Shown here piece by piece: positions 1,476 through 18,176 of a DNA stretch of 20,015 bases. The DNA comes from an uncultured virus (IMG/VR IMGVR_UViG_3300003873_000005). Lineage: Duplodnaviria; Heunggongvirae; Uroviricota; Caudoviricetes. Every line of letters starts with the position of its first letter. Positions within the stretch are counted from its first letter, which is position 1. The translations under genes and the position numbers were made by a program. The stretch lies in IMG/VR virus record IMGVR_UViG_3300003873_000005. The stretch is one strand, 5' to 3'. The notes beneath the pieces are model-generated. The model saw only the letters and a list, made by a program, of their open reading frames with translations, searched no databases and was not told the DNA's origin.

Positions 1476-1558
1476 CTATTGCCTAACGCTCATTCTACTT
1501 CCTAACACTCATTCTATTGCCTAACACTCATTCTATTGCCTAACACTCATTCTATTGC
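1476..1558. repeat. 19-bp tandem repeat (CTATTGCCTAACACTCATT) x4 plus partial copy
   Basis: Units at 1476, 1495, 1514 and 1533; the partial unit at 1552 contains the terL stop codon. Confidence 0.95.
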
Positions 1559-3231
1559 ATAATAGTGGTATCAAAAGTTACTGGGGCTATATGTCCTTCA
1601 GTATCTATTAATATTTTACTAGCAATATACATATAGCCTAAACTATGGAGTAAATGGTCTGAGTCTACTTTTACATATCTATACTTATCTTCATCATCCT
1701 TTTGCCTTTGCTTTACCATGCCCCTTAAATGGCTTTTATATATGTCAAGTGGTACTGATCTATTATCAGACTCTTTATCCATATTTTTATCTAAAGATGT
1801 ATTAACAACTAATTTTTCTATGCCTAAAACAGAATCAAATAGTTGCGTTCTATTTACTATTAAATCTACTTCATTAGCCTTAATATTATATAAATCTTTT
1901 TGGTTATCTGAATAATAGCACGTAAAAGCGGGGCCATCAAATATTTCACAGATGTCTTTTGATAATTTTGTTTGTGGCAAAGCATCACAGACTAAAACGT
2001 TAATAAGATATTTTCTTTGATATTCCATTACTCGTTCTTTTATTAAATCTTCAGATACTGACTCTCTTTTATATATTAATACTGAATTATCTGGACTTAC
2101 CCTACCTAGAGTTAGCCAGCATGTTTTACCAAAGTCAATCCCCATACAAAGACTAAACCCTTTAGGCTCCCCAAGGTCATAAGGAATAAATTTAGAATCT
2201 GTATCAAACATCATATCATTAGAAACATATTCCTTTCCTAGAGCAAAGTTAACAAAGTCAGAATAGCTGCTATAATCGGTCATACCCTTTAATAAATCAT
2301 AAGGAGTTTGAAAGGCTGTGTCAAAAGGATTTACTTGATAACCCGCTACTGCTCTACCTTCATATTTAGCTACCCACTCTCTTGCTGAGTAACTATGATA
2401 ATCTAGTGGCTTTCTACAGCCTTGGCATAGGTATTTAACATCTGAAGGATGTAAATAAGTTAGATCATCTTTAGTTAATTCTTTTAGTGCGAAGTTTTTT
2501 AGCTTTGGATGATCGACTATTATATCATTATCAAATGAATCACTTGTTTCATTCCATTTACCACAATGAGGACATTTTTTTAAAAAAAATTTTTGATCTG
2601 ATAATTCGAACTCTTTTGAAATACCAAATTTAGGTATAGTTGGTGTAGAAAATTTTCTAAATAATTTCCATTTTGAGTGCTGTACTCTAGAACTATATTT
2701 ATTTATTATGTCTAAATCAGAAAAATCTAACTCATCATGTATTAGGATATCAGCTGGAACTGAGATGGCTGTTTTTGCCCCAATGGTTCCTTTTATATAT
2801 AAGTAACTTTTACCTAGCTTTTTTAATTCTTTGCTATCAACATGAGTATCTAGCATTGACTTTAATAATTTTGAATCTGATATAACATCATCAACTCTGG
2901 TGGTAGAAAAATCTAGTGCATTCTTTCTAGTAGGTTGAGTTAATATGGCTGTTAGTGCTTGATTTCTGGCGAGAAAAGCTAGTGCTGATCTTACCATAAC
3001 TTCTGATAAGCCTACTTGAGCGCATTTTTTTACTACAATATTACGAGATTCATCTGCCATAATTTGTTTTTGAAATTCATGGTCATGAAAATTGTATGCT
3101 ACCCCTTTAATCTTAGTATGCTTACAAACCCAATCAGCCTGGTTTAGTTCTGAATCTTTAAATCCATATCTAGAGTTTAGCTCTGATACAAAAGCTTGAA
3201 GATATACATTAGTACTTTTTTCACTTTTCAT
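1552..3231 (-). CDS. terL: Terminase large subunit, lambda gpA-like
   Basis: VVKKCAQVGLSE (gpA-type Walker A), LIHDELD (Walker B), STPT coupling motif, CPHCG...CQGC zinc motif, MGIDFG nuclease motif; 559 aa. Confidence 0.92.
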   Translation of the reverse strand: MKSEKSTNVYLQAFVSELNSRYGFKDSELNQADWVCKHTKIKGVAYNFHDHEFQKQIMADESRNIVVKKCAQVGLSEVMVRSALAFLARNQALTAILTQPTRKNALDFSTTRVDDVISDSKLLKSMLDTHVDSKELKKLGKSYLYIKGTIGAKTAISVPADILIHDELDFSDLDIINKYSSRVQHSKWKLFRKFSTPTIPKFGISKEFELSDQKFFLKKCPHCGKWNETSDSFDNDIIVDHPKLKNFALKELTKDDLTYLHPSDVKYLCQGCRKPLDYHSYSAREWVAKYEGRAVAGYQVNPFDTAFQTPYDLLKGMTDYSSYSDFVNFALGKEYVSNDMMFDTDSKFIPYDLGEPKGFSLCMGIDFGKTCWLTLGRVSPDNSVLIYKRESVSEDLIKERVMEYQRKYLINVLVCDALPQTKLSKDICEIFDGPAFTCYYSDNQKDLYNIKANEVDLIVNRTQLFDSVLGIEKLVVNTSLDKNMDKESDNRSVPLDIYKSHLRGMVKQRQKDDEDKYRYVKVDSDHLLHSLGYMYIASKILIDTEGHIAPVTFDTTIMQ

Positions 3232-3787: not shown

Positions 3788-3853
3788 AGCTGACTCCATA
3801 ATTTATAATTATATTTATAGTGCAACTAAACTATGGAGTGCCTATAGAATTTT

Positions 3854-3925
3854 GAAAATTTTTTGAAAATTTTTTGAAAATTTTTTGAAAATTTTTTGAA
3901 AATTTTTTGAAAATTTTTTGAAAAA
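3854..3925. repeat. 11-bp tandem repeat GAAAATTTTTT x6 (phased A/T tracts)
   Basis: Units at 3854, 3865, 3876, 3887, 3898 and 3909, plus a partial copy at 3920. Confidence 0.95.
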
Positions 3926-4255
3926 TTTTATTAAATTTCCTGGTATTTTTTCTGACAGTTAATATTTGGCAGTTTAAATTTATGAAAAAAATTTACTAAA
4001 ATTTTCTGGTGTTTTTTCTGACAATTTAAATTTATGGAAAAAATTTATCAAAATTTTATTAAAATTTTATTAAAATTTTAATAAAATTTCCTGATATTTT
4101 TTGGCAGTTAATATTTGGCAGTTAATATTTGGCAGTTTAAATTTATGGAAAAATTTTATTAAATTTCCTGGGCATTTTTTCTGACAGTTAATATTTGGCA
4201 GTTAATATTTGGTAGTTTAAATTTATGGAAAAATTTTACTAAAATTTCCTGGGCG
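3921..4255. repeat. Degenerate ~50-110-bp repeat array with CAGTTAATATTTGG sub-repeats
   Basis: CAGTTAATATTTGG at 3956, 4105, 4119, 4185 and 4199; TTTAAATTTATGRAAAAA x4; AAATTTYCTG x5. Confidence 0.9.
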
Positions 4256-4330
4256 TTTTCGGGGCCTATGTAGAGACTGCATGCACGTGTAATTTATAAA
4301 ACATGGCCCCCGTGTTTTAATTGTTTAATT

Positions 4331-4383
4331 TAGTTATGATTATAGCTTTAAAATCAGATTAAATAATCCTGAGGAGGATAAAA
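4331..4383 (+). promoter_or_regulatory. Hairpin+RBS cassette E1 (class A)
   Basis: TAGTTATGATTATAGCTTTAAAATCAGATTAAATAATCCTGAGGAGGATAAA before ATG. Confidence 0.85.
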
Positions 4384-4758
4384 ATGAAAATAGTTAATTT
4401 AACCCAACATATTGCAACTAAGGAACAAATAGACCAAAGTGTGTTCGAGCCTAATAAGGTTATTAAAGAACTTATTAAATTAGCACTTACATTTTATAAA
4501 ATGCCAAATAAAAGACTAATTGAAAAAAAGGCTAAAAGACTAGCTTTTATAGCTGATAGTCAATTATTAGGAGCACTTGATAAGAAAGCTTTAATTGGAG
4601 GTGCTCCATACTTAATGAGTTCCCTTGAAAAAGCCCTAAAAGCTAAAGGCATAACCCCAGTTTATTCTTATTCAAAAAGAATTAGTGAAGAGAAAGAGGT
4701 TAGTGGTAAAGTAGTAAAAACTAATGTATTTAAACATATTGATTTTATAGAGGTTTAG
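4384..4758 (+). CDS. Csx20-like (CARF-related, putative ring nuclease) protein, paralog 1
   Basis: NLTQH..T.EQ N-terminus; ALIGG, GITPVYSYSKR, K..VFKH..F C-terminus resemble Csx20 as I recall it. The ORF is solid; the family call is tentative. Confidence 0.55.
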   Translation: MKIVNLTQHIATKEQIDQSVFEPNKVIKELIKLALTFYKMPNKRLIEKKAKRLAFIADSQLLGALDKKALIGGAPYLMSSLEKALKAKGITPVYSYSKRISEEKEVSGKVVKTNVFKHIDFIEV

Positions 4759-4774
4759 TTTATTTAATTTAGTT

Positions 4775-4826
4775 TAGTTATGATTATAGCTATAAAATCA
4801 GACAAAATAATCCTGAGGAGGATAAA
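4775..4826 (+). promoter_or_regulatory. Hairpin+RBS cassette E2 (class A)
   Basis: TAGTTATGATTATAGCTATAAAATCAGACAAAATAATCCTGAGGAGGATAAA. Confidence 0.85.
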
Positions 4827-4925
4827 ATGGGCTCAGATATATTTAATGAAATAATTAAATTAGTTATATTAAATTTAGTAATATGGCTACCAATAGTATT
4901 AGTAATTAAATTAGTAATACAATAA
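4827..4925 (+). CDS. 32-aa single-pass membrane peptide (not in ORF track)
   Basis: MGSDIFNEIIKLVILNLVIWLPIVLVIKLVIQ*, preceded by its own cassette E2. Confidence 0.8.
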   Translation: MGSDIFNEIIKLVILNLVIWLPIVLVIKLVIQ

Positions 4926-4954
4926 GGAAACTTTAGATTCAATTGTTTAATTAC

Positions 4955-5006
4955 TAGTTATGATTATAGCTTTAAAATCAGATTAAATAGTCCTGAGGAG
5001 GATATT
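4955..5006 (+). promoter_or_regulatory. Hairpin+RBS cassette E3 (class A)
   Basis: TAGTTATGATTATAGCTTTAAAATCAGATTAAATAGTCCTGAGGAGGATATT. Confidence 0.85.
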
Positions 5007-5258
5007 ATGATTATTAGAATGCAAGAGTTTAGTGTGTTATTTAGAGATTTTGTTAAAGCCAACAACCTTACTGAAAAAATAGCTGAGAGTTCAAATGCTT
5101 TTATAACTTCTACAAAAGAAGTTCATGATGGTCTAGCTGCCATGGGACATAAATTCTCAATAGATGTTGAAAATTACTGTAGAGATATAAAGACTTTACA
5201 AGCCAGAACAATAAATAAGTTAGGTAGAGATAAGCAACTACGTAACTTAAAATACTAG
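5007..5258 (+). CDS. Hypothetical early protein
   Basis: 83-aa ORF behind cassette E3. Confidence 0.8.
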   Translation: MIIRMQEFSVLFRDFVKANNLTEKIAESSNAFITSTKEVHDGLAAMGHKFSIDVENYCRDIKTLQARTINKLGRDKQLRNLKY

Positions 5259-5264
5259 AAGATA

Positions 5265-5317
5265 AAGTTTACTGGTAAAAGCTATAAAACCAGACTAAAT
5301 ATTCTGAGGAGAATAAA
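5265..5317 (+). promoter_or_regulatory. Hairpin+RBS cassette E4 (class B)
   Basis: AAGTTTACTGGTAAAAGCTATAAAACCAGACTAAATATTCTGAGGAGAATAAA. Confidence 0.85.
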
Positions 5318-5677
5318 ATGAAAATAGCAACAATTAAAGAAGCAGTAGAAAAATTTGGACAAAATGATTTATCTCAAGAAGATATTAAAAAAGCCCGAAA
5401 AGAAGAATTAATGAATTTAGACCATGAAGCATTAGTTAATATGATTTTAACATCTGAATCAAAAAACCAAGCCTCTGGAATAAAAGTAGGTGATTTAGCA
5501 AAAATGATACTACAAGATGAAGAGTTTATAACTCTTAGTAATGGAGATGTGGCCACAGTATGTAGAGAATTAATTCCAGGAAGTCAAACTAGTCATAAGT
5601 CAATAGCCAGTTATATATCTAAGAAAAGAGATGAATGGCAATTGCCTGATAGAATTAGTATTAGACGAAAAAGATAA
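5318..5677 (+). CDS. Putative DNA-binding (HTH-like) protein, paralog of 9613..10047
   Basis: Shares SGIKVGDLAKMILQDEEFIT...RELIPGS.TS.KSIASY.SKKRD.W.LPDRI with the 9613 ORF; HTH call is inference. Confidence 0.6.
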   Translation: MKIATIKEAVEKFGQNDLSQEDIKKARKEELMNLDHEALVNMILTSESKNQASGIKVGDLAKMILQDEEFITLSNGDVATVCRELIPGSQTSHKSIASYISKKRDEWQLPDRISIRRKR

Positions 5678-5683
5678 ATTAAA

Positions 5684-5736
5684 TAGTTTGCTGGTAATAG
5701 CTATAAAACCAGCATAAAAGTTCTGAGGAGGACAAA
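5684..5736 (+). promoter_or_regulatory. Hairpin+RBS cassette E5 (class B)
   Basis: TAGTTTGCTGGTAATAGCTATAAAACCAGCATAAAAGTTCTGAGGAGGACAAA. Confidence 0.85.
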
Positions 5737-6198
5737 ATGGAAAAAATAACAGAAAGAGAACTACAAGTATTTAGTGCCCCTTATTTTAGTTCTATAAATA
5801 GACTTGGCTTTAGTTGGTATTACACTAATATGTTTAGGTTACAAATAAAATTTAAAATGAATAAAGATAAAGAAATAAATATAAAAGCTGAGAAATTTAA
5901 TGGCTCATTAATAAGACTCCTAGTCTTGATGGAAAATGTATTCTTAAGAGATTATAAAGAAATAGATATCTATGAAGGAATAGCCACAATAACTAATAAT
6001 TGGGATTTCTCTGAGAAAGAAAACTATTACCTATTAAGTAATGGTGATATAATTAGATCATACTATCATAAGTACTATAGAGCTGCTATAGTTGGCCATA
6101 TTGAGATACCTAAAAACATAAACTGGGATGGAAAATTTGATGACGAGCTTATTAAAAAAATGTCTAAAAAATTAGTTGAACGAATACAAGGAGTATAA
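5737..6198 (+). CDS. Hypothetical early protein
   Basis: 153-aa ORF behind cassette E5. Confidence 0.8.
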   Translation: MEKITERELQVFSAPYFSSINRLGFSWYYTNMFRLQIKFKMNKDKEINIKAEKFNGSLIRLLVLMENVFLRDYKEIDIYEGIATITNNWDFSEKENYYLLSNGDIIRSYYHKYYRAAIVGHIEIPKNINWDGKFDDELIKKMSKKLVERIQGV

Positions 6199-6199
6199 A

Positions 6200-6601
6200 A
6201 TGATAGAGAAAATGGTAATGAGCATGAAAAATAAGATAGTCACTTTTTCTAAAAAGGGATTTAATATCCCTGAAAATGAAATGGTGATATTAAGAAAGTG
6301 GTATCTAGAAGGCGCCATTAATTTTAAGGCAAATGGTTATGGCCTTCAGGCAGATCTATATGGCCCATGTTTAGAAGATGAGTTATGGGAAAATATCTAC
6401 AGTGTGACATGGCTAAAAGTATTTAGACTGCTGTGTAATAAATATGGTGTTAAAACTGGCATAAGCAAAGCTAGTGTTAATGAATATTGTAAGTCTACTG
6501 GGAATTATAAAATCTATCCTGTAATTAGTACAAAGATTGAGAGTTTTGATCAAGACTTAGAAGATAGCCTTATGGCATTGGCGTCAAAGATTGAGAGTTG
6601 A
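6200..6601 (+). CDS. Hypothetical protein
   Basis: Start reassigned to ATG 6200 with AAGGAG at 6188-6193, abutting the upstream stop. Confidence 0.75.
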   Translation: MIEKMVMSMKNKIVTFSKKGFNIPENEMVILRKWYLEGAINFKANGYGLQADLYGPCLEDELWENIYSVTWLKVFRLLCNKYGVKTGISKASVNEYCKSTGNYKIYPVISTKIESFDQDLEDSLMALASKIES

Positions 6602-6619
6602 AAAGAAAGATATTTTAAA

Positions 6620-6672
6620 TAGTTTACTGGTAATAGCTATAAAACCAGACTAAAATTCTAAGGAGAACAAAA
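6620..6672 (+). promoter_or_regulatory. Hairpin+RBS cassette E6 (class B)
   Basis: TAGTTTACTGGTAATAGCTATAAAACCAGACTAAAATTCTAAGGAGAACAAAA. Confidence 0.85.
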
Positions 6673-6912
6673 ATGCTAAAAAATACTAGTTTAAATAAAA
6701 TTAAGCAGCCATTAAAGATTGATATTAATGAGGATAATGAAATTATACTAACTAAACAGAACGGTAGTATGAACACTTTTCATGTATCGGGAGTGGCTTA
6801 TATTGATTTAATTGAAGCTGATTACAATGATGATGAGGTCACTCAAGCATGGAACTTTATAGTTAAAAAGTTATCTGAACTTAACAAGATAAAATTAAAG
6901 AATGTTAGTTAA
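6673..6912 (+). CDS. Hypothetical early protein
   Basis: 79-aa ORF behind cassette E6. Confidence 0.8.
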   Translation: MLKNTSLNKIKQPLKIDINEDNEIILTKQNGSMNTFHVSGVAYIDLIEADYNDDEVTQAWNFIVKKLSELNKIKLKNVS

Positions 6913-6944
6913 GTTATTATAAATCTATATAAAAGGAAAAAACA

Positions 6945-7145
6945 ATGAATAAAGAATTAAATAATATTAAAAATATTATAGTTGAATCTCTTGAAGGTGA
7001 TAAACTTGATAGGATAGAATTAGAAAGTGTATGTACTTATCTAGGTTGGGTAAATTGTCTGATAGAATATAAAATTAACCCAACAATAGAAGATACTAAA
7101 GAACTATTAAACTTAGTAGCTGGTCTAAAAGAAACTTATCTATAA
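6945..7145 (+). CDS. Hypothetical protein
   Basis: 66-aa ORF with AAGGA RBS. Confidence 0.7.
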   Translation: MNKELNNIKNIIVESLEGDKLDRIELESVCTYLGWVNCLIEYKINPTIEDTKELLNLVAGLKETYL

Positions 7146-7158
7146 GTTTAAATTTAAA

Positions 7159-7213
7159 TAGTTTACTGGTAATAGCTATAAAACCAGACTAAAAAGTTCT
7201 GAGGAGGACAAAA
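7159..7213 (+). promoter_or_regulatory. Hairpin+RBS cassette E7 (class B)
   Basis: TAGTTTACTGGTAATAGCTATAAAACCAGACTAAAAAGTTCTGAGGAGGACAAAA. Confidence 0.85.
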
Positions 7214-8218
7214 ATGTTAATAGCAGAAAAAATGTTAGTAGATTTAGTAAACAAAGGAATTATTAAATTTACAGAAAAAGACCTTAAAGGTGTTAAAAGT
7301 GCTTGTGAAAGAAAATTACTATATAGTCTTGGCGCTTATAAAGGTATAAAAATAAGTAGTAGTAATCAAACGTTATTTGGTATTAGGAAGTTAAAGAAAG
7401 TCATTAGTGCTAATAAGTACACCAATGATATGAGAGAGCTATTTAAGATTGTTTATAAAGATAATCTTAATAACTTTATAAATATTACTGGAAAGTATGA
7501 CTTTATAGAGACAATAAACAGTAAAAAATACCTGTATGGAATAAAAAATAGACTGACTAACTGGATTAAATATAACAAGGGTAAAGATTTATTTATAAAA
7601 GGATTAGGCGGTTTTAATATTCAAGAAGCGCATACTAGGTATATAAAACTAAATAAATATACTGATGATGGTTTATTAACACCTGAAAATTTAATAATTA
7701 GTGGTTACATGAAAATAGATAATCTATATGCTGAAAGAATATTAGAAGCCTCAAAAGGTCTATTTAAATGGGCAGTTATTCATAAATTTGATACTGCACG
7801 TTTAGATGAGCTATTAGATCTATATATATTAGATCAATGGAATAAAAATCTTAGTGTAAATGATGTAATAAAAAGACTGGCTAATATTAAAGTACGTGGA
7901 TTAAACTTAACATATAGAGATAAAATTAACTTTGAATATCCAGAAAATCTAAAAATCTTAGCACAAAAAACAGCCTTTACTCTACCAAAGAATGGCATAG
8001 AACTTAAAAGACAAGCCAAAGAGTTCAAAAACTGTTCAGCATCTTATGTAGATAAAATAATTAAAGGTAGTAGTTACATAATGTATACTGATACTGAAAT
8101 GGTTGAAATAACAAAAACAGGTAATATAATTCAACATTATGGAAAAAGAAATAAACCTGTTGATATATATACAAAGGATAGTTTGCAAGATAAAGCCTAT
8201 AGTATAATGAGTAAATAG
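7214..8218 (+). CDS. PcfJ-like domain protein
   Basis: C-terminal LPK...EL..QA..FKNCSASY...I..G...VEI......IQHYGKRN pattern typical of PcfJ-like domains. Confidence 0.7.
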   Translation: MLIAEKMLVDLVNKGIIKFTEKDLKGVKSACERKLLYSLGAYKGIKISSSNQTLFGIRKLKKVISANKYTNDMRELFKIVYKDNLNNFINITGKYDFIETINSKKYLYGIKNRLTNWIKYNKGKDLFIKGLGGFNIQEAHTRYIKLNKYTDDGLLTPENLIISGYMKIDNLYAERILEASKGLFKWAVIHKFDTARLDELLDLYILDQWNKNLSVNDVIKRLANIKVRGLNLTYRDKINFEYPENLKILAQKTAFTLPKNGIELKRQAKEFKNCSASYVDKIIKGSSYIMYTDTEMVEITKTGNIIQHYGKRNKPVDIYTKDSLQDKAYSIMSK

Positions 8219-8242
8219 TTTAAACAGTCTAAGTAATTTAAG

Positions 8243-8295
8243 TAGTTTACTGGTAATAGCTATAAAACCAGGTTAAATACTCTGAGGAGAATGAA
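8243..8295 (+). promoter_or_regulatory. Hairpin+RBS cassette E8 (class B)
   Basis: TAGTTTACTGGTAATAGCTATAAAACCAGGTTAAATACTCTGAGGAGAATGAA. Confidence 0.85.
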
Positions 8296-8625
8296 ATGAA
8301 AACCTATATAGTTAGAATAGAAGAGATATTGGCCATAGAGGTGCCTATAAAGGCAAATAGTGAAGACGAAGCTTTAGATTTGGTGAAACAACAGTATTTT
8401 AATGAAGAGATTGTTTTAGATGAATCTAATTTTGAAGATAGATCTTTTAAAATTATAACAAAGCCTTTAGCTAAAAAACTTTACAAGAGCTATACGATTT
8501 TTCCAACTGTAAATGGCGTGTGGGTAGTAGAAGAGAATAAAGGTTGGCCAGCACAAAATGAAAGACAACAGTACTGGTCAAAGAAAGCAGCGCAGGAGGA
8601 AGCTGATAGAAGAAATTATAAGTAA
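8296..8625 (+). CDS. DpnD/PcfM-like domain protein
   Basis: Y.VRIEEIL..EV.IKANSEDEALDLVKQQY.NEEIVLD...F matches the DpnD/PcfM-like pattern. Confidence 0.7.
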   Translation: MKTYIVRIEEILAIEVPIKANSEDEALDLVKQQYFNEEIVLDESNFEDRSFKIITKPLAKKLYKSYTIFPTVNGVWVVEENKGWPAQNERQQYWSKKAAQEEADRRNYK

Positions 8626-8633
8626 TTCAAAAA

Positions 8634-8686
8634 TAGTTTACTGGTAATAGCTATAAAATCAGACTAAATATTCTAAGGAGAATAAA
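8634..8686 (+). promoter_or_regulatory. Hairpin+RBS cassette E9 (class B)
   Basis: TAGTTTACTGGTAATAGCTATAAAATCAGACTAAATATTCTAAGGAGAATAAA. Confidence 0.85.
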
Positions 8687-9085
8687 ATGATAGAATCAAT
8701 GGAAACAATAAACAAAGGTAAAGTTATTTGGGCTTATGAACTAGAAGATTCAGACACTGAAGAAATAAAAAAGCAATTACTAAATGCCCAAGGTGAATAT
8801 GATTACTATGAAACTGCAGCTACTATAGAATTAACTGGCGATACTACGGGTAACCTAGTTGAATTCGATGTAACAGTCTCTGACTATCTAACAGAGAAAG
8901 AATGGGTACACTCAATAGACTTAGGTTATATGGTAAAGACTCTTAGAGATCAGTATGAAGATACTAATAAAGATAAGTATAACTTTTATAAAGGTTTAAA
9001 TTGTGTGATTGGACTATCCCCTGAAGATCTTACCCAAAGTGATTTAGACCTTATAAGAGAAGATTTTATGGCTATAAAATTCTAA
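8687..9085 (+). CDS. Hypothetical acidic early protein
   Basis: 132-aa D/E-rich ORF behind cassette E9. Confidence 0.8.
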   Translation: MIESMETINKGKVIWAYELEDSDTEEIKKQLLNAQGEYDYYETAATIELTGDTTGNLVEFDVTVSDYLTEKEWVHSIDLGYMVKTLRDQYEDTNKDKYNFYKGLNCVIGLSPEDLTQSDLDLIREDFMAIKF

Positions 9086-9095
9086 GTAACTTATA

Positions 9096-9118
9096 GAGCC
9101 CTACTATATGTAGGGTTC
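9096..9118 (+). terminator. Stem-loop closing the early cluster (terminator or processing site)
   Basis: GAGCCCTAC-TATAT-GTAGGGTTC just after the stop; no strong U-tract. Confidence 0.5.
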
Positions 9119-9430
9119 AATTAAGATTCATTTAGAAAGGAACCCAAATGTGCGTACAATACTACATTAACAGCCCATAAATGCTCAACCAGTTTTAGCT
9201 TATATTTTATATTTTATATAAAGCTAATGGCCTTGGCATTTCCCAAGTTCCAAATTCCTACCCAATAGTCTTTTATATTATATAGACATACCCTCTATTA
9301 CTGTAGATTTACGTATTACTCTGCACTCATTTTACTATATATGCCCAATCCAATTGATTCATTGCCCGCACGCACATGACAATATAAATATGCCTATGCC
9401 ATTACAGATAGGCCAAGTAACCACGCGCAC

Positions 9431-9539
9431 ACTTGATATATAATATAAATACATAAGGAGATAAGGTGCTAGCGCTCAGCTGGCTAACTTGCCAAATGTT
9501 ATATGCCAAGTGGCTATTAATGAACTTGATATATAATAT
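9431..9539 (+). promoter_or_regulatory. Duplicated promoter motif ACTTGATATATAATAT
   Basis: Exact 16-bp copies at 9431-9446 and 9524-9539, each containing TATAAT, upstream of the 9613 operon. Confidence 0.65.
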
Positions 9540-9612
9540 TATTACGAATCAAAAATAAGATGCTTCTGACAAAAGAAGCCCACAAACTGTCAATCTTAGG
9601 AGGACAAATCAA

Positions 9613-10047
9613 ATGAAAATTACAACTAAAGAGGACATAGTCCAAAAATTTGCACCAATGGTAGCTGACCCTGAGTCAGCCAATGAGGAAGCTGTTACTG
9701 CCCGTACAGAAGAACTTATGAAGTTAACAAAGGCTGAACTTGCTGAAATGATTACTACCAAAGAGGCGATGTCTACATCAGGCATCAAAGTGGGTGACCT
9801 TGCCAAGATGATTCTACAAGATGAAGAGTTTATCACCGCAAGTCATGGTATGGTAGCTGCTGCTATCAGAGAGCTTATCCCCGGAAGTAATACAAGTTAT
9901 AAGTCAATTGCAAGTTATGTCTCCAAAAAGAGAGATGACTGGAACTTGCCAGACAGAATTATGATTAGAACAGCGAGACCAAAAAAAGCCGTATCTGAAA
10001 CTGAAACTGAAACTGAAACTGAAACTGAAACTGAAGAACAAGAATAG
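9613..10047 (+). CDS. Putative DNA-binding (HTH-like) protein with poly-ET acidic tail, paralog of 5318..5677
   Basis: AGGAGG RBS; shared core with the 5318 ORF; (CTGAAA)x6 at 9995-10030 encodes ETETET. Confidence 0.65.
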   Translation: MKITTKEDIVQKFAPMVADPESANEEAVTARTEELMKLTKAELAEMITTKEAMSTSGIKVGDLAKMILQDEEFITASHGMVAAAIRELIPGSNTSYKSIASYVSKKRDDWNLPDRIMIRTARPKKAVSETETETETETETEEQE

Positions 10048-10053
10048 TCACCC

Positions 10054-10067
10054 GGGCCGCAAGGCCC
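10054..10067 (+). terminator. GCAA-tetraloop hairpin after 9613 ORF
   Basis: GGGCC-GCAA-GGCCC; lacks a U-tract, so it may be a stabiliser or weak terminator. Confidence 0.45.
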
Positions 10068-10089
10068 TATACATATTAAGGACATTTAA

Positions 10090-10410
10090 ATGAAAAAATA
10101 CACTGCCATAATCACAGAAAAGACTACTGTTGAAGCCAATTCAAAAGAAGAGGCTTATCAAAAGTTTAATGAAATGGACTTAAAAGCTGAGTCTACAAAT
10201 AGAAAAATTGAAATTGAAGCAACTGTTGGTTATAAACTACACCGTAAAGTACTTAAAAAAGCTACCAGTATTGACCATTTGGGTAACTGCCTTAAGGTTG
10301 ATTACAAAGATAATAAACAGCGAGATAAAGCTCTCAAATTTATAGATACAAATATCTGGACTTATAGTGATGCTTTGGATAATATTATTTATATATATCC
10401 ACTAGTTTAG
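10090..10410 (+). CDS. Hypothetical protein (N-terminal VEANSKEEA motif like 8296 ORF)
   Basis: 106-aa ORF with AAGGA RBS. Confidence 0.75.
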   Translation: MKKYTAIITEKTTVEANSKEEAYQKFNEMDLKAESTNRKIEIEATVGYKLHRKVLKKATSIDHLGNCLKVDYKDNKQRDKALKFIDTNIWTYSDALDNIIYIYPLV

Positions 10411-10418
10411 TCTAACAC

Positions 10419-10476
10419 AGGCCCTCATTAGGGGTGGATTAGGTCCTCCTCAGATAATCCGCCCTAATGAGGGCCT
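10419..10476 (+). ncRNA. Long stem-loop with anti-RBS loop (candidate antisense RNA)
   Basis: Arms 10419-10441 and 10455-10476 pair (22 bp, one bulge, one G.U); loop GGTCCTCCTCAGA is the reverse complement of TCTGAGGAGGACC. Confidence 0.6.
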
Positions 10477-10493
10477 AACTATAAAGGAATTCT

Positions 10494-10766
10494 ATGGGCT
10501 CAACGCTATTTATTATGTTTTTACTATGGCTATTTTTGCCAAGAGAGATATTTAGGGGGGCTCCTTGGCTAATAACTGGCACTACTGCCTGTTATATGCT
10601 GGCATTTTATGGTACTTCCTGGTATGGCCAATTAGGTGTAATGTCTAGTTTTATCATTTATGCAATTTGGACAAGAAATGATAGCAAATTTCATGAATAT
10701 TTAGCATATATTATTATGCCTATTATAGCTGTATTTGGTGAATTTTTAATGCTATGGATTCATTAA
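10494..10766 (+). CDS. Small multi-pass membrane protein
   Basis: 90 aa with 3-4 hydrophobic segments; AAGGA RBS. Confidence 0.7.
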   Translation: MGSTLFIMFLLWLFLPREIFRGAPWLITGTTACYMLAFYGTSWYGQLGVMSSFIIYAIWTRNDSKFHEYLAYIIMPIIAVFGEFLMLWIH

Positions 10767-10811
10767 ATAATTAATGACTGGCATAGGCATCAGGCTTAAA
10801 CTTATCTCATT

Positions 10812-10950
10812 GCCCATCGCTCCGTCACCCTGTCACTCTGTCACCCTGTCACCCATCGCCCTGTCACCCTGTCACCCTGTCACCCCATCACCTTATCACC
10901 CATCACTCGTCACCCCAAACGCCATTGCCATTGCCATTGCCATTGCCATT
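10812..10950. repeat. Degenerate GTCACCCT 8-mer array followed by (GCCATT)x5
   Basis: 8-mer array about 10812-10916; hexamer run 10921-10950. Confidence 0.9.
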
Positions 10951-11635
10951 CAACTATTATAGATGTGACATTTTAAACGAAAAAAGGAGTTAAAATCATA
11001 GGTATGAAAATTTTTTTTAAAAACTTCATTGCCTACAGATTAGTGAAATTTTTTTGCTTTATGGTAAATTAAAATTTTGCATAATTTTTTGTAATTAAAC
11101 TATTTTTACTTATATTAACTGTTATTTTGTGATTCCCAGATCGCTTTTTAAACTTCTTTTTTAGCTTTAATATTGATTTTATAAGCTAAATTTTTTCTGT
11201 AGCTTACTCAAGCCATGATTGTGACATTTATGTTACATTTTAGCACACTTTTAGCCTGTTGCCATGCAGGTAAAATTGAAAAGCCTCCAAGTTGAAAGAA
11301 TTTTTTATGGATTGACGAAAATCTAATACTTGAAAACACAAATTGAAAAAAAATTTCGCTGCCAATTTAAGCTAAAATTAATATTTTAAAAAAAATAATT
11401 AGTTTTTAAAACTTATAACTTGAGTTTATTTCACATTTTTGCAGTAGCACTTGTCTGAGGTTTTAAAACTGCTGCCTGTGTAGCATTAAAGTTAGCTTAA
11501 AAAGATAGCTAAAATGCAACACTTGATACCGACGCTTTTTTAGCAAGAGAATCAAAAAATGCTTCATTAGCTAATTTTTAAAAAATGTAATTAGTTATTT
11601 TAGCTAATAAAGCGCAATCTTAAACTAATATTAAG

Positions 11636-11821
11636 TTTAAGCTTAAATATAGCTTAAATTGAACGTTCAATTTTTTAGTGAAAAGTTCATATACACACAC
11701 CATTAAATTCGTTTGCAGAGCGCTTAAAATTCACACTTCGAAATATTTTTTACTATATGTGTGTATTTGAGTTTATCTAGTATAATTTTCGCTATCAATT
11801 TAAGCTATATCTAAGCTTAAA
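11636..11821. repeat. 27-bp inverted repeat with nested dyads
   Basis: 11636-11662 matches the reverse complement of 11795-11821 at 26/27; inner ATACACACA (11691-11699)/TGTGTGTAT (11758-11766). Confidence 0.9.
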
Positions 11822-12199
11822 ATGACTTCTCGTATGGAAAAGACTAACAAATTGACTAGAAAAATCATTTGAGGTATATTTCCTAACCATATACTAGTGA
11901 CTAAATAAACAATGGAAAACTGATTTCTAGTTTGGAAAAGACTAGTTTTTAACTTGGAAAAGTGCTTTTGACTTCGAGCCCTTTCTATAGAAAAAAATTG
12001 GTCTAAGTTACGTTTAAGCTTTATAAAATAGTAATTTTTTCACTATTTTATAATCTATAACACTAGCACTAATTGCGTTTATATTTTAATAAGATAACTA
12101 AGTTAAGGAGCCACAGATTGAGCAGAGAACTATTAAAAAGACTAAAAAGCATAATTATGTAATACAAAATGTTCAAAAATTTTAACAATCATTTAATCA

Positions 12200-12345
12200 C
12201 AAAATGGCTGGCACTGCCGTGGTAAAATGACAAAATGGCCTGGCACTGCCAGGCCAGTGCCGAGGTAAAAATGACAAAATGGCCTGGCCTGGCAATAGCA
12301 ATAGCACTAGCACTGCCGCTGCAGCAAAATGGCAAATTACCACTA
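12200..12345. repeat. GC-rich TGGCACTGCC/CAAAATGGC repeat island
   Basis: Repeated CAAAATGGC and GGCACTGCC; dyad TGGCCTGGCA-C-TGCCAGGCCA at 12236-12256. Confidence 0.85.
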
Positions 12346-12377
12346 ACACTTCCTGACATTGTCCATAGATTTATGCA

Positions 12378-12437
12378 CTTAACTAAGCTTAACCAAGCTT
12401 AACTAAGCTTAACTAAGTATATATATATATATATATA
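12378..12437. repeat. CTTAACTAAG x4 followed by (TA)10
   Basis: 10-mers at 12378-12417 (one variant); TA run at 12418-12437. Confidence 0.95.
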
Positions 12438-12537
12438 AAAAATAGAAATAAAGTATAGAGCATAAAAGTATAAAGCAAATTTTTCAATTATATTATATAA
12501 TCAAATAATCTAACAAAGGATCAAAGTAACTAAAATG

Positions 12538-12630
12538 AAACTTTAACTATAATTATATTAATAAAAGAGTATAATAGATTTGATTGAAGCAGTGCTATTA
12601 GGATATGCAAACTTTAACTATAATTATATT
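12538..12630 (+). promoter_or_regulatory. Duplicated promoter motif AAACTTTAACTATAATTATATT
   Basis: Exact 22-bp copies at 12538-12559 and 12609-12630 containing TATAAT, upstream of the right-hand gene run. Confidence 0.65.
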
Positions 12631-12669
12631 TAAAGCAGGTATTATTACAAAAAATAAAGGATATGCAAA

Positions 12670-12972
12670 GTGAAAAATGGAATTATAGAAGAGTTTAGCA
12701 TAATCGATTTGATTGAAGCAAATGTTATTATGAAAAGTAAAGATAAGACAAACGTAGCCAATTTTATTAATCTATATAATGTTAAGGCTATTAAATATAG
12801 ATTAACTAGCAAAGGTGGACTTAAAGCTGTATACAGTACTAAAAGTTTAACTGAAGGTTATAAAAAATATACTAAAAATACAAATATAAAACCTGGTTGT
12901 ATAAGAGATAGATTGATAAAAGCAGTTTTAACTTACCTATACAGCGGAGATAGCTGGGTTCATACAAAATAA
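12670..12972 (+). CDS. Hypothetical basic protein
   Basis: GTG start, AAGGA RBS, 100 aa. Confidence 0.7.
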   Translation: MKNGIIEEFSIIDLIEANVIMKSKDKTNVANFINLYNVKAIKYRLTSKGGLKAVYSTKSLTEGYKKYTKNTNIKPGCIRDRLIKAVLTYLYSGDSWVHTK

Positions 12973-12994
12973 AATAAAGCATAAGGAGTACAGA

Positions 12995-13243
12995 ATGGGA
13001 TATAGAAGAAATGGTGCAGATTGCGCATCAGATTTAGGAATAAATACAGAAGCTAGTGGACAATATATAGAAAAACCTTATAAAGTTAGAGTATTAGATG
13101 GCCAAGGCTATGATGATCTCTGTAGTTTTGAAACAAAGGAAGAGCAAATGGCTTTTGTTTCTAAAAAAATAGAGAATGGCTGCGAAATTAGCGGTACAGA
13201 CACTTTTATAGTAGCCAAAATAGTAAGCAGAAATATCAGGTAG
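12995..13243 (+). CDS. Hypothetical protein
   Basis: 82 aa, AAGGAG RBS. Confidence 0.75.
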   Translation: MGYRRNGADCASDLGINTEASGQYIEKPYKVRVLDGQGYDDLCSFETKEEQMAFVSKKIENGCEISGTDTFIVAKIVSRNIR

Positions 13244-13886: not shown

Positions 13887-14195
13887 ATGAAAAAATTTGA
13901 AGAGCATATAAACAATATAAAAAATAAGTACTATACTAGTGGAGAAATTGTAGTAGAAGAGGATAAAAATTTTTATTATATTAGTTTTTGGGATAATAGA
14001 GCAAAATTTGATTTTACTGTTTCTAAAAATGAAGCAGCTGAATTTTTGAACAGTATAGAATATATATTTGAACATTTTGACTTCAGTTTTTATTTAGAAG
14101 GAGATTTGAAAAGTATAAAAGACTTATCAGGAGATTTGAAAAGTATAAAAGACTTATCGGGAGATTTGAAAAATATATTAAGGAATAAGTTATGA
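13887..14195 (+). CDS. Hypothetical protein with in-frame 30-bp repeat (GDLKSIKDLS x2.4)
   Basis: 102 aa; repeat at 14100-14172. Confidence 0.75.
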   Translation: MKKFEEHINNIKNKYYTSGEIVVEEDKNFYYISFWDNRAKFDFTVSKNEAAEFLNSIEYIFEHFDFSFYLEGDLKSIKDLSGDLKSIKDLSGDLKNILRNKL

Positions 14196-15001
14196 AAAAA
14201 ATAACAGTTAAAGTAAATAGATATTGGCTTGATACAAGCATACCAGCCGAGGCTGATGAGTATAAAAAAATTGAGACTATTTGTAAAAGCAAAAGGTATC
14301 AATTATTTGATTTTTTAGATTTACCTATCTCGGGTATAAATGATAAAAAGAAAATTGAGTCGGGTGTGTATGAGATAGATACTAAGTATCTTTTCTCAGA
14401 CCAATACAACACAGTACAAACTGATGCCCATATTGGATATAGAATACATGATTGGACAGAAAAAATTTGTGATAACAAGAAAATTAAATCAGGTTATTAC
14501 TTAAGTGAAGAAGAGGATTTACAAGCACTTATAAAGAATATATACAGATGTGGTTGGTGTGGGCATCAATATACTAAAGAAGAGGCTAAAAAAATTAAGT
14601 ATTGTGATAAATGCCGCGATGATTTAAATTTAGGCCCTGAAAGATATAGTTTATTAGTTTTAAAACCTCTTAAATATTCTGGCAAAAAAATAGAAAAGTT
14701 GCCAGAATCTGTAGTTATAGATATATTAAAGCAACAAAAAGAAGCTGCAAAAAAACAACTTGAAAAGAGTAATAAAAGAAAATTAGAAGTATTAGCTCAA
14801 GATATAGAAGATGCAAAAATAGAATATGAAGCGTTCTTATGGCTTATTGATAATGATATACACATTGACAATATTATCTATTATTCACATAGAGATAAGT
14901 TTTGTTTTGGATGGAAGACATCATATAATGAAGAAGAGGAAACTAAATTAAGAGCCAGGTTATCCAATTTTCCATATAAATACTATTTTAATAAGGAGTA
15001 A
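14192..15001 (+). CDS. Hypothetical zinc-ribbon protein
   Basis: CGWCG...CDKC motif plus coiled coil; 269 aa. Confidence 0.8.
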   Translation: MKKITVKVNRYWLDTSIPAEADEYKKIETICKSKRYQLFDFLDLPISGINDKKKIESGVYEIDTKYLFSDQYNTVQTDAHIGYRIHDWTEKICDNKKIKSGYYLSEEEDLQALIKNIYRCGWCGHQYTKEEAKKIKYCDKCRDDLNLGPERYSLLVLKPLKYSGKKIEKLPESVVIDILKQQKEAAKKQLEKSNKRKLEVLAQDIEDAKIEYEAFLWLIDNDIHIDNIIYYSHRDKFCFGWKTSYNEEEETKLRARLSNFPYKYYFNKE

Positions 15002-15913: not shown

Positions 15914-16279
15914 ATGCTAAATTTAACTAAAAATACTCTAACACAAAAACAAAAGGCTTGTGGGATTATTGAGCCCAGTAAATTATTTAAAATAGAGATA
16001 AAAAAGTTACTGCTATTTGATAAGGTTCCTACAAATGCGCAGATAGAGTATAGAGCTGAAAAATTAGCCTATTATGCAGATATAATAATCTTAGGTTCTG
16101 GAAAGTTTAATTCACTAAATGAAAAGAAAGCTTTAATAGATGGTAGTCCATTTTTAATGAGTTCTTTAGAAAGAGCCTTATTTAATAGAAATATAGTACC
16201 TTATTATCTTTTTAATAACAAAGTACTTAAACCTAGTATACCTAGTTATATTAGCGTTATTAAAGCTATACGTAACTAA
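15914..16279 (+). CDS. Csx20-like paralog 2 (divergent C-terminus)
   Basis: LNLTKN..T.KQ...KKALIDGSPFLMSSLERAL...IVPYY aligns with the 4384 ORF. Confidence 0.55.
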   Translation: MLNLTKNTLTQKQKACGIIEPSKLFKIEIKKLLLFDKVPTNAQIEYRAEKLAYYADIIILGSGKFNSLNEKKALIDGSPFLMSSLERALFNRNIVPYYLFNNKVLKPSIPSYISVIKAIRN

Positions 16280-16289
16280 AGGAGTTAAA

Positions 16290-16613
16290 ATGAAATATCT
16301 TAATTTAACAGGCAGCAATGCAACAAAAGAACAAATAGACTATGGGGTAATAGACCCTAAAGAAAAAATGAAATTAAAAATTCAAAAACTCTTAAATTTT
16401 GAAAACATTCCTGAAATGGAAGAAGTTAATAGTAGGGCTAAACAATTAGCCTATATTGCACATGCCATAATATTAACAGATGATAAGTTCAAAGGTGTTA
16501 AGAGTTTTAATGCTTTAATTGAAGGAGTACCTTTTTTAATGAATACTCTTGAAAAAGAACTTATAGCAAAAGGTATAACACCATTTTATGTTGTTTTAAA
16601 GGAATTAAAATGA
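16290..16613 (+). CDS. Csx20-like paralog 3 (C-terminally truncated)
   Basis: LNLTGSNATKEQID...ALIEGVPFLMNTLEKELIAKGITPFY aligns with the 4384 ORF. Confidence 0.55.
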   Translation: MKYLNLTGSNATKEQIDYGVIDPKEKMKLKIQKLLNFENIPEMEEVNSRAKQLAYIAHAIILTDDKFKGVKSFNALIEGVPFLMNTLEKELIAKGITPFYVVLKELK

Positions 16614-16993
16614 TAAATCAAGAGTTGCTAAGTGAAGTATTAAACAAAGAAGTTATCAGCTATACTTTTGTAAAAGAATATAAAGACATGAAAAATTTTT
16701 TATCAATTACTTGTAAAGATGAAACTCACACTATAAGTATTTATGAATTAATGTGCCTTTGTAAAGAATGGATTGTTAAACAAATAAAAGAAAATTTACC
16801 TTATTCTCCTTATATAAAAACTGAAGTTGTAATTCGCAGAGGTGAAAATAGAATATATTATTTCTGCGAATTACAAAGTGAATTATTTTATATAGATAAA
16901 GTAGATAATGTTCATTTTAAGAGACTTATGGCAAAAACAGAACCAGAAGCTGTATTTAAAGCTGGTAAATATATTTTAGAGGAATTAAAATGA
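16610..16993 (+). CDS. Hypothetical phage protein
   Basis: 127 aa; ELLSEVL...IYEL...CKEW...TEPEAVFKA; overlaps neighbours at ATGA. Confidence 0.8.
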   Translation: MINQELLSEVLNKEVISYTFVKEYKDMKNFLSITCKDETHTISIYELMCLCKEWIVKQIKENLPYSPYIKTEVVIRRGENRIYYFCELQSELFYIDKVDNVHFKRLMAKTEPEAVFKAGKYILEELK

Positions 16994-17519: not shown

Positions 17520-18176
17520 ATGATAACAGAAATTAAGATGGAAGTAACACCTGACCTATCAAAACGAGTTAAAGAAATTGTGAGCAATAATGGTGGAAGA
17601 TGGTTTATAGGCACAAAAAAGACAAAATGCTTAAACCATAAATATCTATTTATAGATGAGTATAGTGTTTTAACCATAACAAATAACAATGAAGATTTTA
17701 AAAACAATAAATTTAAAGAAATTTCACCTTGTGATTTTATAGCAAGTCAAGGGCAACAAGAATGGTTACCAAATTACGGCAAAGAAGCATTATTTAGTGA
17801 TAATGAAAAAGATTGGCACAGTGCTACATTTCGTTGCTATGATCCAAATGATAAATACCGTTTTCGTACAGAAATTAATACCTTTGTATTTTGTAAACCA
17901 CTACCTAAAGAAATATCTTTTATTCAATTTTTAAAAGATAATGCTATTTATGATACATATATGCACAATATAGAAATTGAAAATCAACGATGGTATGATA
18001 TAGAAAAATATAAACTATTATCAAGACTACAAAAACATAAATCAAAGGAATGGATACTTTGTGCGTTTAACTGGGAAAAACAAAAAGAGGGATTTGATGC
18101 TTGGAATAATTTAAATGAAAAATGGATAAATATAACAGAACAAAATTCTGATACAAACATAGTATGGGGGGAATAA
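17520..18176 (+). CDS. Hypothetical protein, tandem paralog A
   Basis: 218 aa; colinear with the 18178 ORF. Confidence 0.85.
   Translation: MITEIKMEVTPDLSKRVKEIVSNNGGRWFIGTKKTKCLNHKYLFIDEYSVLTITNNNEDFKNNKFKEISPCDFIASQGQQEWLPNYGKEALFSDNEKDWHSATFRCYDPNDKYRFRTEINTFVFCKPLPKEISFIQFLKDNAIYDTYMHNIEIENQRWYDIEKYKLLSRLQKHKSKEWILCAFNWEKQKEGFDAWNNLNEKWINITEQNSDTNIVWGE

Follow-up and report, generated by a model that had tools for sequence, protein, structure and literature searches.

A candidate anti-Shine-Dalgarno hairpin RNA of an uncultured tailed phage, with a loop complementary to the ribosome sites of its early gene cassettes

The 20,015-nucleotide (nt) stretch of DNA considered here (IMG/VR record IMGVR_UViG_3300003873_000005; the window, at its full length) comes from an uncultured, tailed phage of low GC content (26-37%). 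Between two open reading frames (ORFs) of its plus strand lies a long GC-rich hairpin whose loop is complementary to the Shine-Dalgarno (SD) ribosome sites of a series of early gene cassettes. The sequence supports predicted pairing of the loop with these sites well, and conservation, covariation and energy all speak for it. The reading that we favour, with somewhat less than even confidence, is that the hairpin would be a conserved plus-strand anti-SD regulatory RNA element acting on the early-cassette sites; the original prediction, which took it for an anti-SD RNA, appears partly supported by what follows. The hairpin and its loop are placed as follows:

10419-10476, plus strand: long hairpin (5' arm 10419-10441, loop 10442-10454, 3' arm 10455-10476)
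10442-10454, plus strand: apical 13-nt loop, anti-SD, GGUCCUCCUCAGA = GGTCCTCCTCAGA; positions 10443-10454 are the exact complement of TCTGAGGAGGAC

The stem consists of 22 pairs, including one G.U, and one bulged G. Its plus-strand fold (-38.8 kcal/mol) was equalled by none of 200 shuffles (mean -22.2, z -5.15), and repeat folding gave -38.5 to -38.8 kcal/mol with z about -5.2 to -6.4; sequence and fold both confirm the GC-rich 22-base-pair (bp) stem-loop that had been proposed. In the ensemble the loop is mostly unpaired, with unpaired probabilities of 0.87-0.99 at eight of its 13 positions and 0.55 at 10450; lower values (0.22-0.30) fall on G10442, G10443, C10448 and C10449. With up to 3 mismatches allowed, the hairpin has a single copy in the window and is no repeat resembling repetitive extragenic palindromes or miniature inverted-repeat transposable elements (REP/MITE-like); the contigs of three DNA runs aligned to 8600-11400 contain no variants of it. 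A scan of the whole window against Rfam (cmscan, E <= 1) assigned the hairpin to no family, c4 (RF01695) included; the sole match in the window, Spot_42 at 16813-16884 (24.9 bits vs a gathering score of 80), is unrelated. A tRNA or tmRNA at the hairpin was considered and dropped, none being detected.

The portal (2-1420) and large terminase (1552-3231) genes lie on the minus strand, and every gene from ~4300 on lies on the plus strand. Ten start regions within 4366-9605 share a repeated leader of ~60 nt, in which a promoter-like stretch is followed by a small stem (CTGGT..ACCAG) and this by a TCTGAGGAGGAC-like sequence 3-7 nt 5' of the ATG; plain AAGGAG-type sites precede the portal gene and the genes right of 12670, as originally stated. 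A search of the window for TCTGAGGAGGAC at up to 2 mismatches gave 10 matches against 0.41 expected, a number reached by none of 100 shuffles. The exact matches are at 5722 (cassette E5) and 7198 (E7), in agreement with the original prediction, and at the loop itself on the minus strand (10443-10454). One mismatch separates the match at 9594, and two those at 4368, 4812, 4992, 5303, 6657 and 8281, so that the partial matches claimed for E1-E3, E4/E8 and E6/E9 and the 11 of 12 at 9594 also stand; the ninth cassette (8672, TCTAAGGAGAAT) has 3 mismatches. The ten complementary start regions, which lie 0.8-6 kb upstream of the hairpin, are listed here with the total energy of predicted pairing, that is, duplex plus opening costs (RNAcofold is unable to show a closed loop pairing with another strand):

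4366-4379, plus strand: E1 site, ATCCT-GAGG-AGGAT; ATG 4384; total -14.8 kcal/mol
4810-4823, plus strand: E2 site, ATCCT-GAGG-AGGAT; ATG 4827; total -13.7 kcal/mol
4990-5003, plus strand: E3 site, GTCCT-GAGG-AGGAT; ATG 5007; total -13.6 kcal/mol
5301-5314, plus strand: E4 site, ATTCT-GAGG-AGAAT; ATG 5318; total -10.5 kcal/mol
5720-5733, plus strand: E5 site, GTTCT-GAGG-AGGAC; ATG 5737; 12-nt exact loop complement; duplex -23.8, total -17.9 kcal/mol
6655-6668, plus strand: E6 site, ATTCT-AAGG-AGAAC; ATG 6673; weak predicted partner, total -8.0 kcal/mol
7196-7209, plus strand: E7 site, GTTCT-GAGG-AGGAC; ATG 7214; 12-nt exact complement; duplex -23.8, total -16.2 kcal/mol
8279-8292, plus strand: E8 site, ACTCT-GAGG-AGAAT; ATG 8296; total -12.4 kcal/mol
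8670-8683, plus strand: E9 site, ATTCT-AAGG-AGAAT; ATG 8687; weak predicted partner, total -4.9 kcal/mol
9592-9605, plus strand: site of gene 9613, AATCT-TAGG-AGGAC; agrees with the loop complement at 11 of 12 positions; total -12.0 kcal/mol

Eight of these ten total -10.5 to -17.9 kcal/mol, and all 17 other start regions of the window -2.1 to -6.9 kcal/mol; in the energy model, predicted pairing sets the cassette start regions of the window apart from all its other start regions. The site of gene 9613, which belongs to the same operon as the hairpin, is identical in the relative considered next.

That relative, G002, is a 96-kb contig with terminal repeats, a terminase 77% identical to that of the window and the same layout; BLAST alignment of the two DNAs is confined to window 9507-10030, the 9613 gene (69%). 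G002 has a hairpin (L012:12226-12292; -41.1 kcal/mol, z -6.85) 1-2 genes 3' of its orthologue of gene 9613 and 5 nt ahead of the next ribosome site, likewise in one copy in the 42 kb of G002 examined. The loop core (CCUCCUCAGAU, or CCTCCTCAGAT) is identical in the two, the changes in the basal stem are compensatory (AGGCCCTCA/TGAGGGCCT vs AGACCCTCT/AGAGGGTCT), the upper stem differs, and the flanking ORFs are unrelated or barely related. By sequence, then, the loop is conserved where stem and flanking genes diverge; it is the best-conserved part of the hairpin, the stems having drifted. The cassettes of G002 are its own set (aATCTGAGGAGATt), and five or more of its ribosome sites are both complementary to the loop and structured. 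A MAFFT alignment of three hairpins did not align them by structure.

Scans of other contigs found the same loop elsewhere, though rarely. A scan of viral contigs for TAGNNCCTCCTCAGAT produced 84 matches, nearly all due to chance, and only those of G002 and L069 lie within the loop of a long hairpin (matches in L047 and L049, in GC-rich or coding sequence, were set aside). A gapped palindrome pattern had 18 matches in viral contigs, 8 of them plain inverted repeats. L069 has a perfect 21-bp stem and a 13-nt loop, GTTCCTCCTCAGA, 7 nt 3' of TGTTATAAT; a U-run comes after the hairpin, and after that CCTGAGGAGGAA, the site of an ORF for a DUF559-type nuclease (DUF559, E 8.8e-5); promoter-like and terminator-like sequences flank the hairpin. 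The L103 group, nine contigs with four distinct sequences, combines TGnTATAAT, an 18-19-bp stem, a loop containing ..GCCTCCTCAGC.. and, 4 nt 3' of the hairpin, GTCTGAGGAGGCTT, which serves an HNH-AP2 endonuclease gene as its ribosome site (phrog_374, E 1e-61). Both sides of the stem have changed in 4 of 19 pairs among the four sequences of this group (3 of 500 shuffles score as high), and at minimum energy the L103 leader folds into the loop:site helix itself, covering the site. A scan of genome contigs gave 93 matches, and in 9 of them CCTCCTCAG lies in a hairpin loop closed by a stem of 9 bp or more; L242 alone has the full architecture, in which this type of loop is combined with the SD mini-hairpin discussed below, and the remainder are plain inverted repeats or lack such a hairpin. 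L242, a contig of an Epsilonproteobacteria metagenome-assembled genome, has on its minus strand (~1490-1604) a long hairpin whose loop, CTCTACAACCTCCTCAGTT, is nearly that of the L103 group; next come an SD mini-hairpin and an ORF of 274 codons, non-nuclease by eye. The sequence of L242 hints at a leader class extending beyond nuclease genes.

The loop core is kept in G002, L069, the L103 group and L242, and with the window these make up a class defined here by a stem of at least 18 bp and a loop with CCUCCUCAG. In all five lineages the distance from the end of the hairpin to the ribosome site behind it is 4-20 nt; complementary structured sites number ten in the window, and L069, the L103 group and L242 have one each, adjacent to the hairpin. 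Among 116 loci of unrelated phages (925,632 nt) there is no hairpin with a CCTCC loop and a stem of more than 14 bp. A covariance model, R1, built from the L103 group only, scores L069 at 36.8 bits, G002 at 23.6, the window at 20.6 and L242 at 16.9, each first in its own locus, and the best background score is 16.8 bits in 901,868 nt of unrelated phage loci; the corresponding E-values are rough (0.23 for the window). Covariation was judged by the two loop bases 5' of CCUCC and the two site bases 3' of GGAGG, which were free in the search patterns:

Window: loop GU, site AC (G.U with the AU of E1-E3); pairs
L069: loop UU, site AA; pairs
L103/L105: loop AG, site CU; pairs
G002: loop UA, site GGAGAU; no pairing
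L242: loop AA, site GU; no pairing

The loop flank covaries with the site in three of the five lineages, with three different dinucleotides; the L103-group variant L104 pairs at one position out of two (loop CG, site CU).

These look-alikes also bear on the strand. The minus strand of the window hairpin has a fold of about equal stability (-38.4 kcal/mol, z -4.66), and its transcript would present UCUGAGGAGGACC in a loop as a decoy for an SD-binding protein or for ribosomes, a sponge of the CsrA/RsmA type, as the original prediction had allowed. We regard this as very improbable indeed: the minus strand has neither a gene-quality ORF nor a transcription unit between 3800 and 20015, the Rfam GGA-loop families give no match, and on the CCUCC strand of L069 and the L103 group the hairpin is flanked by a promoter-like site on one side and a gene on the other. 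Because those look-alikes stand between a promoter-like TGnTATAAT and a plus-strand gene, the strand with the CCUCC loop is most likely the functional one. A gene start on the minus strand inside the loop was also tried and dropped for want of a start codon at a suitable distance.

The cassette sites are themselves structured. They conform to NNYCU-[G/A]AGG-AGRNN, in which the outer five bases are paired and covary (ATCCT/AGGAT, GTCCT/AGGAT, ATTCT/AGAAT, GTTCT/AGGAC, AATCT/AGATT, TATCT/AGATA, TTCCT/AGGAA and AGTCT/AGGCT) around a GAGG or AAGG tetraloop. All five pairs are formed at seven of the ten window sites, in all five G002 cassettes, in L102, at three L003 sites, in L069 and in the L103 group; CUGA next to the SD core is kept in the window, G002, L102 and L003 despite their differing leaders. 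NNYCU-GAGG-AGRNN is, as far as sequence goes, a recurring structured SD motif in unrelated phage contigs. The 'TCTG extension' that the original prediction treated as an address is indeed present, not as a free sequence but as one strand of this 5-bp mini-hairpin with its GAGG loop. The large loop is complementary to the GAGG tetraloop plus one strand of the mini-hairpin, which suggests a loop-loop contact that would be followed by strand invasion. Each cassette leader also has a further upstream stem, with covarying arms (CTGGT..ACCAG, GCTGGT..ACCAGC, TGAT..ATCA, CTAG..CTAG) and a conserved loop, AATAGCTATAAA, that overlaps the promoter-like TATAAA (e.g., 7166-7187, 5689-5714 and 4337-4356 in the window, L012 5082-5103, L102 ~148-166); it could be a promoter hairpin or an RNA stem at the 5' end.

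The long hairpin might instead work as DNA, as a cruciform or a protein-binding inverted repeat (an operator, or a site of replication or recombination) sharing a half-site with the cassette leaders. The complementary copies of the 12-mer form an inverted DNA repeat equally well, covariation of loop and site is also compatible with two half-sites of one protein, and the hairpin adjoins a gene-poor, repeat-rich 1.9 kb (10767-12669) that is a possible origin. G.U pairs, which form in RNA but not in DNA, nevertheless occur in the stems of the window, of G002 and of the L103 group (at one L103 pair GU in 4 of 4 sequences), and the mini-hairpins use them as well (GTCCT/AGGAT, GTTCT/AGGAC); the promoter-like sequences and the gene orientation in L069 and the L103 group further imply a position in the 5' untranslated region. 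A DNA-level element is decidedly improbable on these grounds.

The remaining rivals turn on the operon in which the hairpin is embedded:

9432-9446 and again 9525-9539, plus strand: promoter-like CTTGATATATAATAT, by inference candidate promoters of the hairpin's operon
9613-10047, plus strand: opens the operon of the hairpin; 62% of amino acids shared with its paralogue, cassette gene 5318-5677
10090-10410, plus strand: ORF with no family match; weakly like a G002 ORF (E 0.004)
10494-10766, plus strand: 90-codon hydrophobic ORF with a plain site, AAAGGAA, not complementary to the loop; total -3.9 kcal/mol

Gene 9613-10047 is the orthologue of G002 gene L012:10770-11183 (69% of amino acids), upstream of which a motif similar to CTTGATATATAATAT is present. 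ORF 10090-10410 has no relative in viral_contigs, and neither it nor 10494-10766 matches a nuclease family in Pfam or PHROGs.

The hairpin could be a leader element of local use, governing translation or stability of the adjoining gene 10494-10766, with the cassette match reflecting shared descent of leader modules. A ribosome site closely follows the hairpin in five of five lineages, and at the L069 and L103-group loci it is the sole complementary one; seg43(25) of the T4 family offers a parallel, for which the pertinent passage of PMC2988022 reports a hairpin of great stability that lies immediately 5' of the ribosome-binding site without covering it. In the window and in G002, however, the sites behind the hairpin (AAAGGAA and AAAGGAAA, respectively) are complementary to the loop over at most 4 nt (total -3.9 kcal/mol), the downstream genes are unrelated, and the exact 12-nt partners lie 3-5 kb upstream. 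We see in the local leader a slim prospect for the window. A pseudoknot in cis with the site of the window's next gene was likewise considered and dropped, the complementarity being 4 nt only.

Less easily dismissed is a hairpin for processing, stability or termination of messenger RNA (mRNA): a stem for RNase III to cleave, an obstacle to exonucleases or a partial terminator separating 10090 from 10494, its loop conserved for a protein or for folding and its cassette match of no regulatory use. RNase III acts on about two turns of double-stranded RNA, a length that the 22-bp stem attains, cleavage itself being hypothetical. The placement fits: the hairpin begins 8 nt 3' of the stop codon of ORF 10090-10410 and ends 8 nt 5' of the plain site of 10494-10766, its G002 counterpart is similarly intergenic, other GC-rich hairpins lie 3' of gene 9613 (~10054-10067) and of its G002 orthologue, and the L069 copy has a terminator-like U-run behind it. 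Yet a hairpin for stability or cleavage needs no fixed 13-nt loop, and here the loop is best conserved while the stems drift; in three of five lineages, moreover, the loop flanks covary with the cognate ribosome sites. For a terminator, the stem is followed by no U-run in the window (AACTATAAAGGAATTC) or in G002 (TACAAAGGAAATC), and a terminator scan did not list the window hairpin. We judge processing, stability or termination unlikely as the whole explanation, though it deserves to be taken seriously; such roles and an anti-SD role are mutually compatible.

Regulation of the early cassettes by the anti-SD loop would take the following course. The 22-bp stem would hold out the 13-nt loop, GNN-CCUCCUCAGA, as an anti-SD sequence, and its CCUC would make first contact with the GAGG tetraloop of a metastable mini-hairpin; pairing would then extend to 11-12 base pairs, opening the mini-hairpin, and the covered SD would keep 30S subunits off. 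Translation of the cassettes would drop upon transcription of the operon 9613 -> 10090 -> hairpin -> 10494. In the window and G002 a distance of 0.8-7 kb separates the hairpin from its upstream partners, which belong to other transcripts or to very long ones, so that intermolecular or long-range action is required; we infer that pairing would take place in the cell, between molecules (or over long range on read-through transcripts), and that repression would be its effect. Action in trans, its timing and an early shut-off are presumed from sequence in the same way, and the stable stem may let the element outlive its mRNA.

Several observations weigh against this regulatory reading. No promoter or U-tract of the hairpin's own is recognisable in the window or G002, so that a free small RNA would have to arise by processing or decay. 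Conservation of the window type comprises two sequences, with one syntenic relative. The predictions that the loop core would be kept and would track the cassette sites have fared unequally: the core is kept in these two genomes, and the 3' flank of the cassettes is not tracked in G002, whose loop mismatches that of its own cassettes (GGAGAU) and gains three pairs on the other side (AAU:AUU), giving 11 contiguous pairs. Separation by pairing energy, clear in the window, is weak in G002, where cassettes (-9.2 to -12.3 kcal/mol) and other start regions (up to -9.7 kcal/mol) overlap; in the window itself E6 (-8.0 kcal/mol) and E9 (-4.9 kcal/mol) are weak partners. A full 12-bp helix within a closed 13-nt loop would be strained, and the energy model used disregards strain. 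Because L069 and the L103 group have a complementary site at the adjacent gene only, the habit of the class is local control, not control of a regulon. Finally, since the mini-hairpin's own stem explains 'TCTG', this sequence need not be the loop's address.

In its boldest form the idea is that a single mRNA-embedded hairpin would be a regulon-wide translational off-switch, its loop kissing the GAGG tetraloops of ten sites, then invading them and silencing the whole early class: an RNA counterpart of T4 RegB/RegA that would have evolved from the self-limiting leaders of mobile nucleases. We put this forward as doubtful, although worth stating.

The nearest precedents for an RNA structure that hides an SD site are the hairpins sequestering the ribosome-binding sites of T-even phages, which the relevant passages of PMC2988022 and PMC3014915 place at the homing-endonuclease genes I-TevI, I-TevII, I-TevIII, segB and mobE and at the late genes e, soc and 49. 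The likeness to these, as there described, is that a phage RNA structure hides an SD site by base pairing (predicted in the present case); the L069 and L103-group look-alikes precede endonuclease genes, and the lowest-energy fold of L103, a site-covering helix, is of the T-even type. The window hairpin differs from the T-even hairpins of those passages in that its anti-SD sequence is in the loop of a separate and far more stable hairpin, in that the adjacent site, AAAGGAA, is noncomplementary and stands 8 nt outside the stem, with no nuclease gene adjacent, and in that its complementary sites are ten start regions dispersed 0.8-6 kb upstream. The adjacent nuclease gene of the T4-type hairpins is found in L069 and the L103 group and not in the window.

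Gram-positive bacteria have small RNAs with C-rich loops, among them the hairpins of Staphylococcus aureus RNAIII, the Rsa RNAs and Listeria LhrC. These direct an exposed C-rich loop against the G-rich SD sites of several mRNAs and block initiation, as is predicted here; each is a transcript by itself, has a promoter and a terminator of its own and carries short UCCC loop motifs, whereas the window element is embedded in a phage operon and its complementarity extends over 11-12 nt. The c4 antisense RNA of phages P1/P7 is cut from a precursor and acts on one downstream operon in the control of immunity; it would resemble the window element (as predicted) in being a phage RNA that is transcribed in the direction of its target without overlapping it and pairs through its loops with the region of a ribosome site. 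For c4 there is an Rfam family, RF01695 (Citron and Schuster 1990; table entry in PMC2864571). The window hairpin differs in having no match to it.

Phages are known to bring their early phase to a close through proteins, for example nucleases, repressors and anti-sigma factors. Among these, the T4 endoribonuclease RegB inactivates early mRNAs at the GGAG of their SD sites, according to the part of PMC3014915 devoted to it. The analogy with RegB, taken as that part presents it, is that early genes are switched off jointly through a shared SD feature; RegB is a protein nuclease, unlike the RNA loop proposed here as the agent. The window element is akin to these known systems yet a member of none, lacking an Rfam match, an adjacent nuclease and a site within its stem, and a full-text literature search of limited depth yielded no description of a phage hairpin of such a kind. 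If the proposal is true, a lone RNA loop that reaches a group of early genes by way of the structured site they have in common would time expression in a new, highly compact manner, and would join the local translation locks of selfish nuclease genes with the trans-acting small RNAs of the C-rich-loop type. The NNYCU-GAGG-AGRNN mini-hairpin counts by itself as a defined RNA motif, and loop and tagged site together would provide a small orthogonal translation switch for engineering.

Relatives of the window are few. The terminase has a best match of 31% identity among phage records, and neither window 9000-13000 nor L069 has a DNA match in cultured phages. G003, with a terminase 60% identical, has neither cassettes nor hairpin. 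An exact search with a 19-mer of the cassette leader gave no match; a gapped cassette pattern gave at least 119 stretches, and among the 80 loci tabulated multiple matches occur only in three overlapping G002 loci. An alignment search with the 9613 family found G002 alone in viral_contigs, plus L102, a 1.6-kb metagenome contig that has cassettes and does not extend to the hairpin region. A search with ORF 14192-15001 reached one distant contig without a comparable hairpin. An IMG/VR contig, L001, whose terminase is 100% identical, ends near 3830-4260, which suggests an assembly break; this segment is an AT-rich field of repeats between the divergent structural and early modules, with 7 copies of TTGAAAATTTT at 11-bp spacing (3852-3930) and 80-nt repeats with TTGGCAGTTAATA.

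Some features of the genes and of the non-coding DNA remain to be mentioned. The hairpin's operon is contained in a GC-richer island (9000-11000; ~37% vs 26-30% around it). Gene 9613-10047 is GC-richer than its paralogue 5318-5677, and the 3' end has a GAAACT repeat (x6) coding for ETETETETETE; a second, short GC-rich hairpin, GGGCC-GCAA-GGCCC (10054-10067), lies 3' of it, and the G002 counterpart (L012 11193-11217) is a different hairpin with a T-rich tail. The sole ORF driven by E2 (4827-4925) has 32 hydrophobic codons (MGSDIFNEIIKLVILNLVIWLPIVLVIKLVIQ) and may encode a small membrane peptide. Cassette gene 7214-8218 is PcfJ-like (E 4.8e-5, just under the Pfam cut-off) and 8296-8625 is DpnD/PcfM-like (E 3e-13); the two recall early-entry genes of conjugative plasmids. 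A family of three small proteins (4384-4758, 15914-16279 and 16290-16613) has one member in an early cassette and shares an N-terminal LT..ATKEQID and a central (G/S)(A/S/V)P(Y/F)LM..LE(K/R), and 17520-18176 and 18178-18846 are tandem paralogous genes of ~220 codons each. The 1.9 kb at 10767-12669, which has no convincing gene and could be an origin or a region of non-coding RNA, contains octamers of the CCCTGTCA type (10805-10906), CATTGC x5 (10923-10950), a (TA)n run, AAATGGCCTGGC/GCCAGG palindromes (12200-12300) and CTTAAC[TC]AAG x4 (12378-12417); at position 10824, 16 nt are missing in a contig from a related sample.

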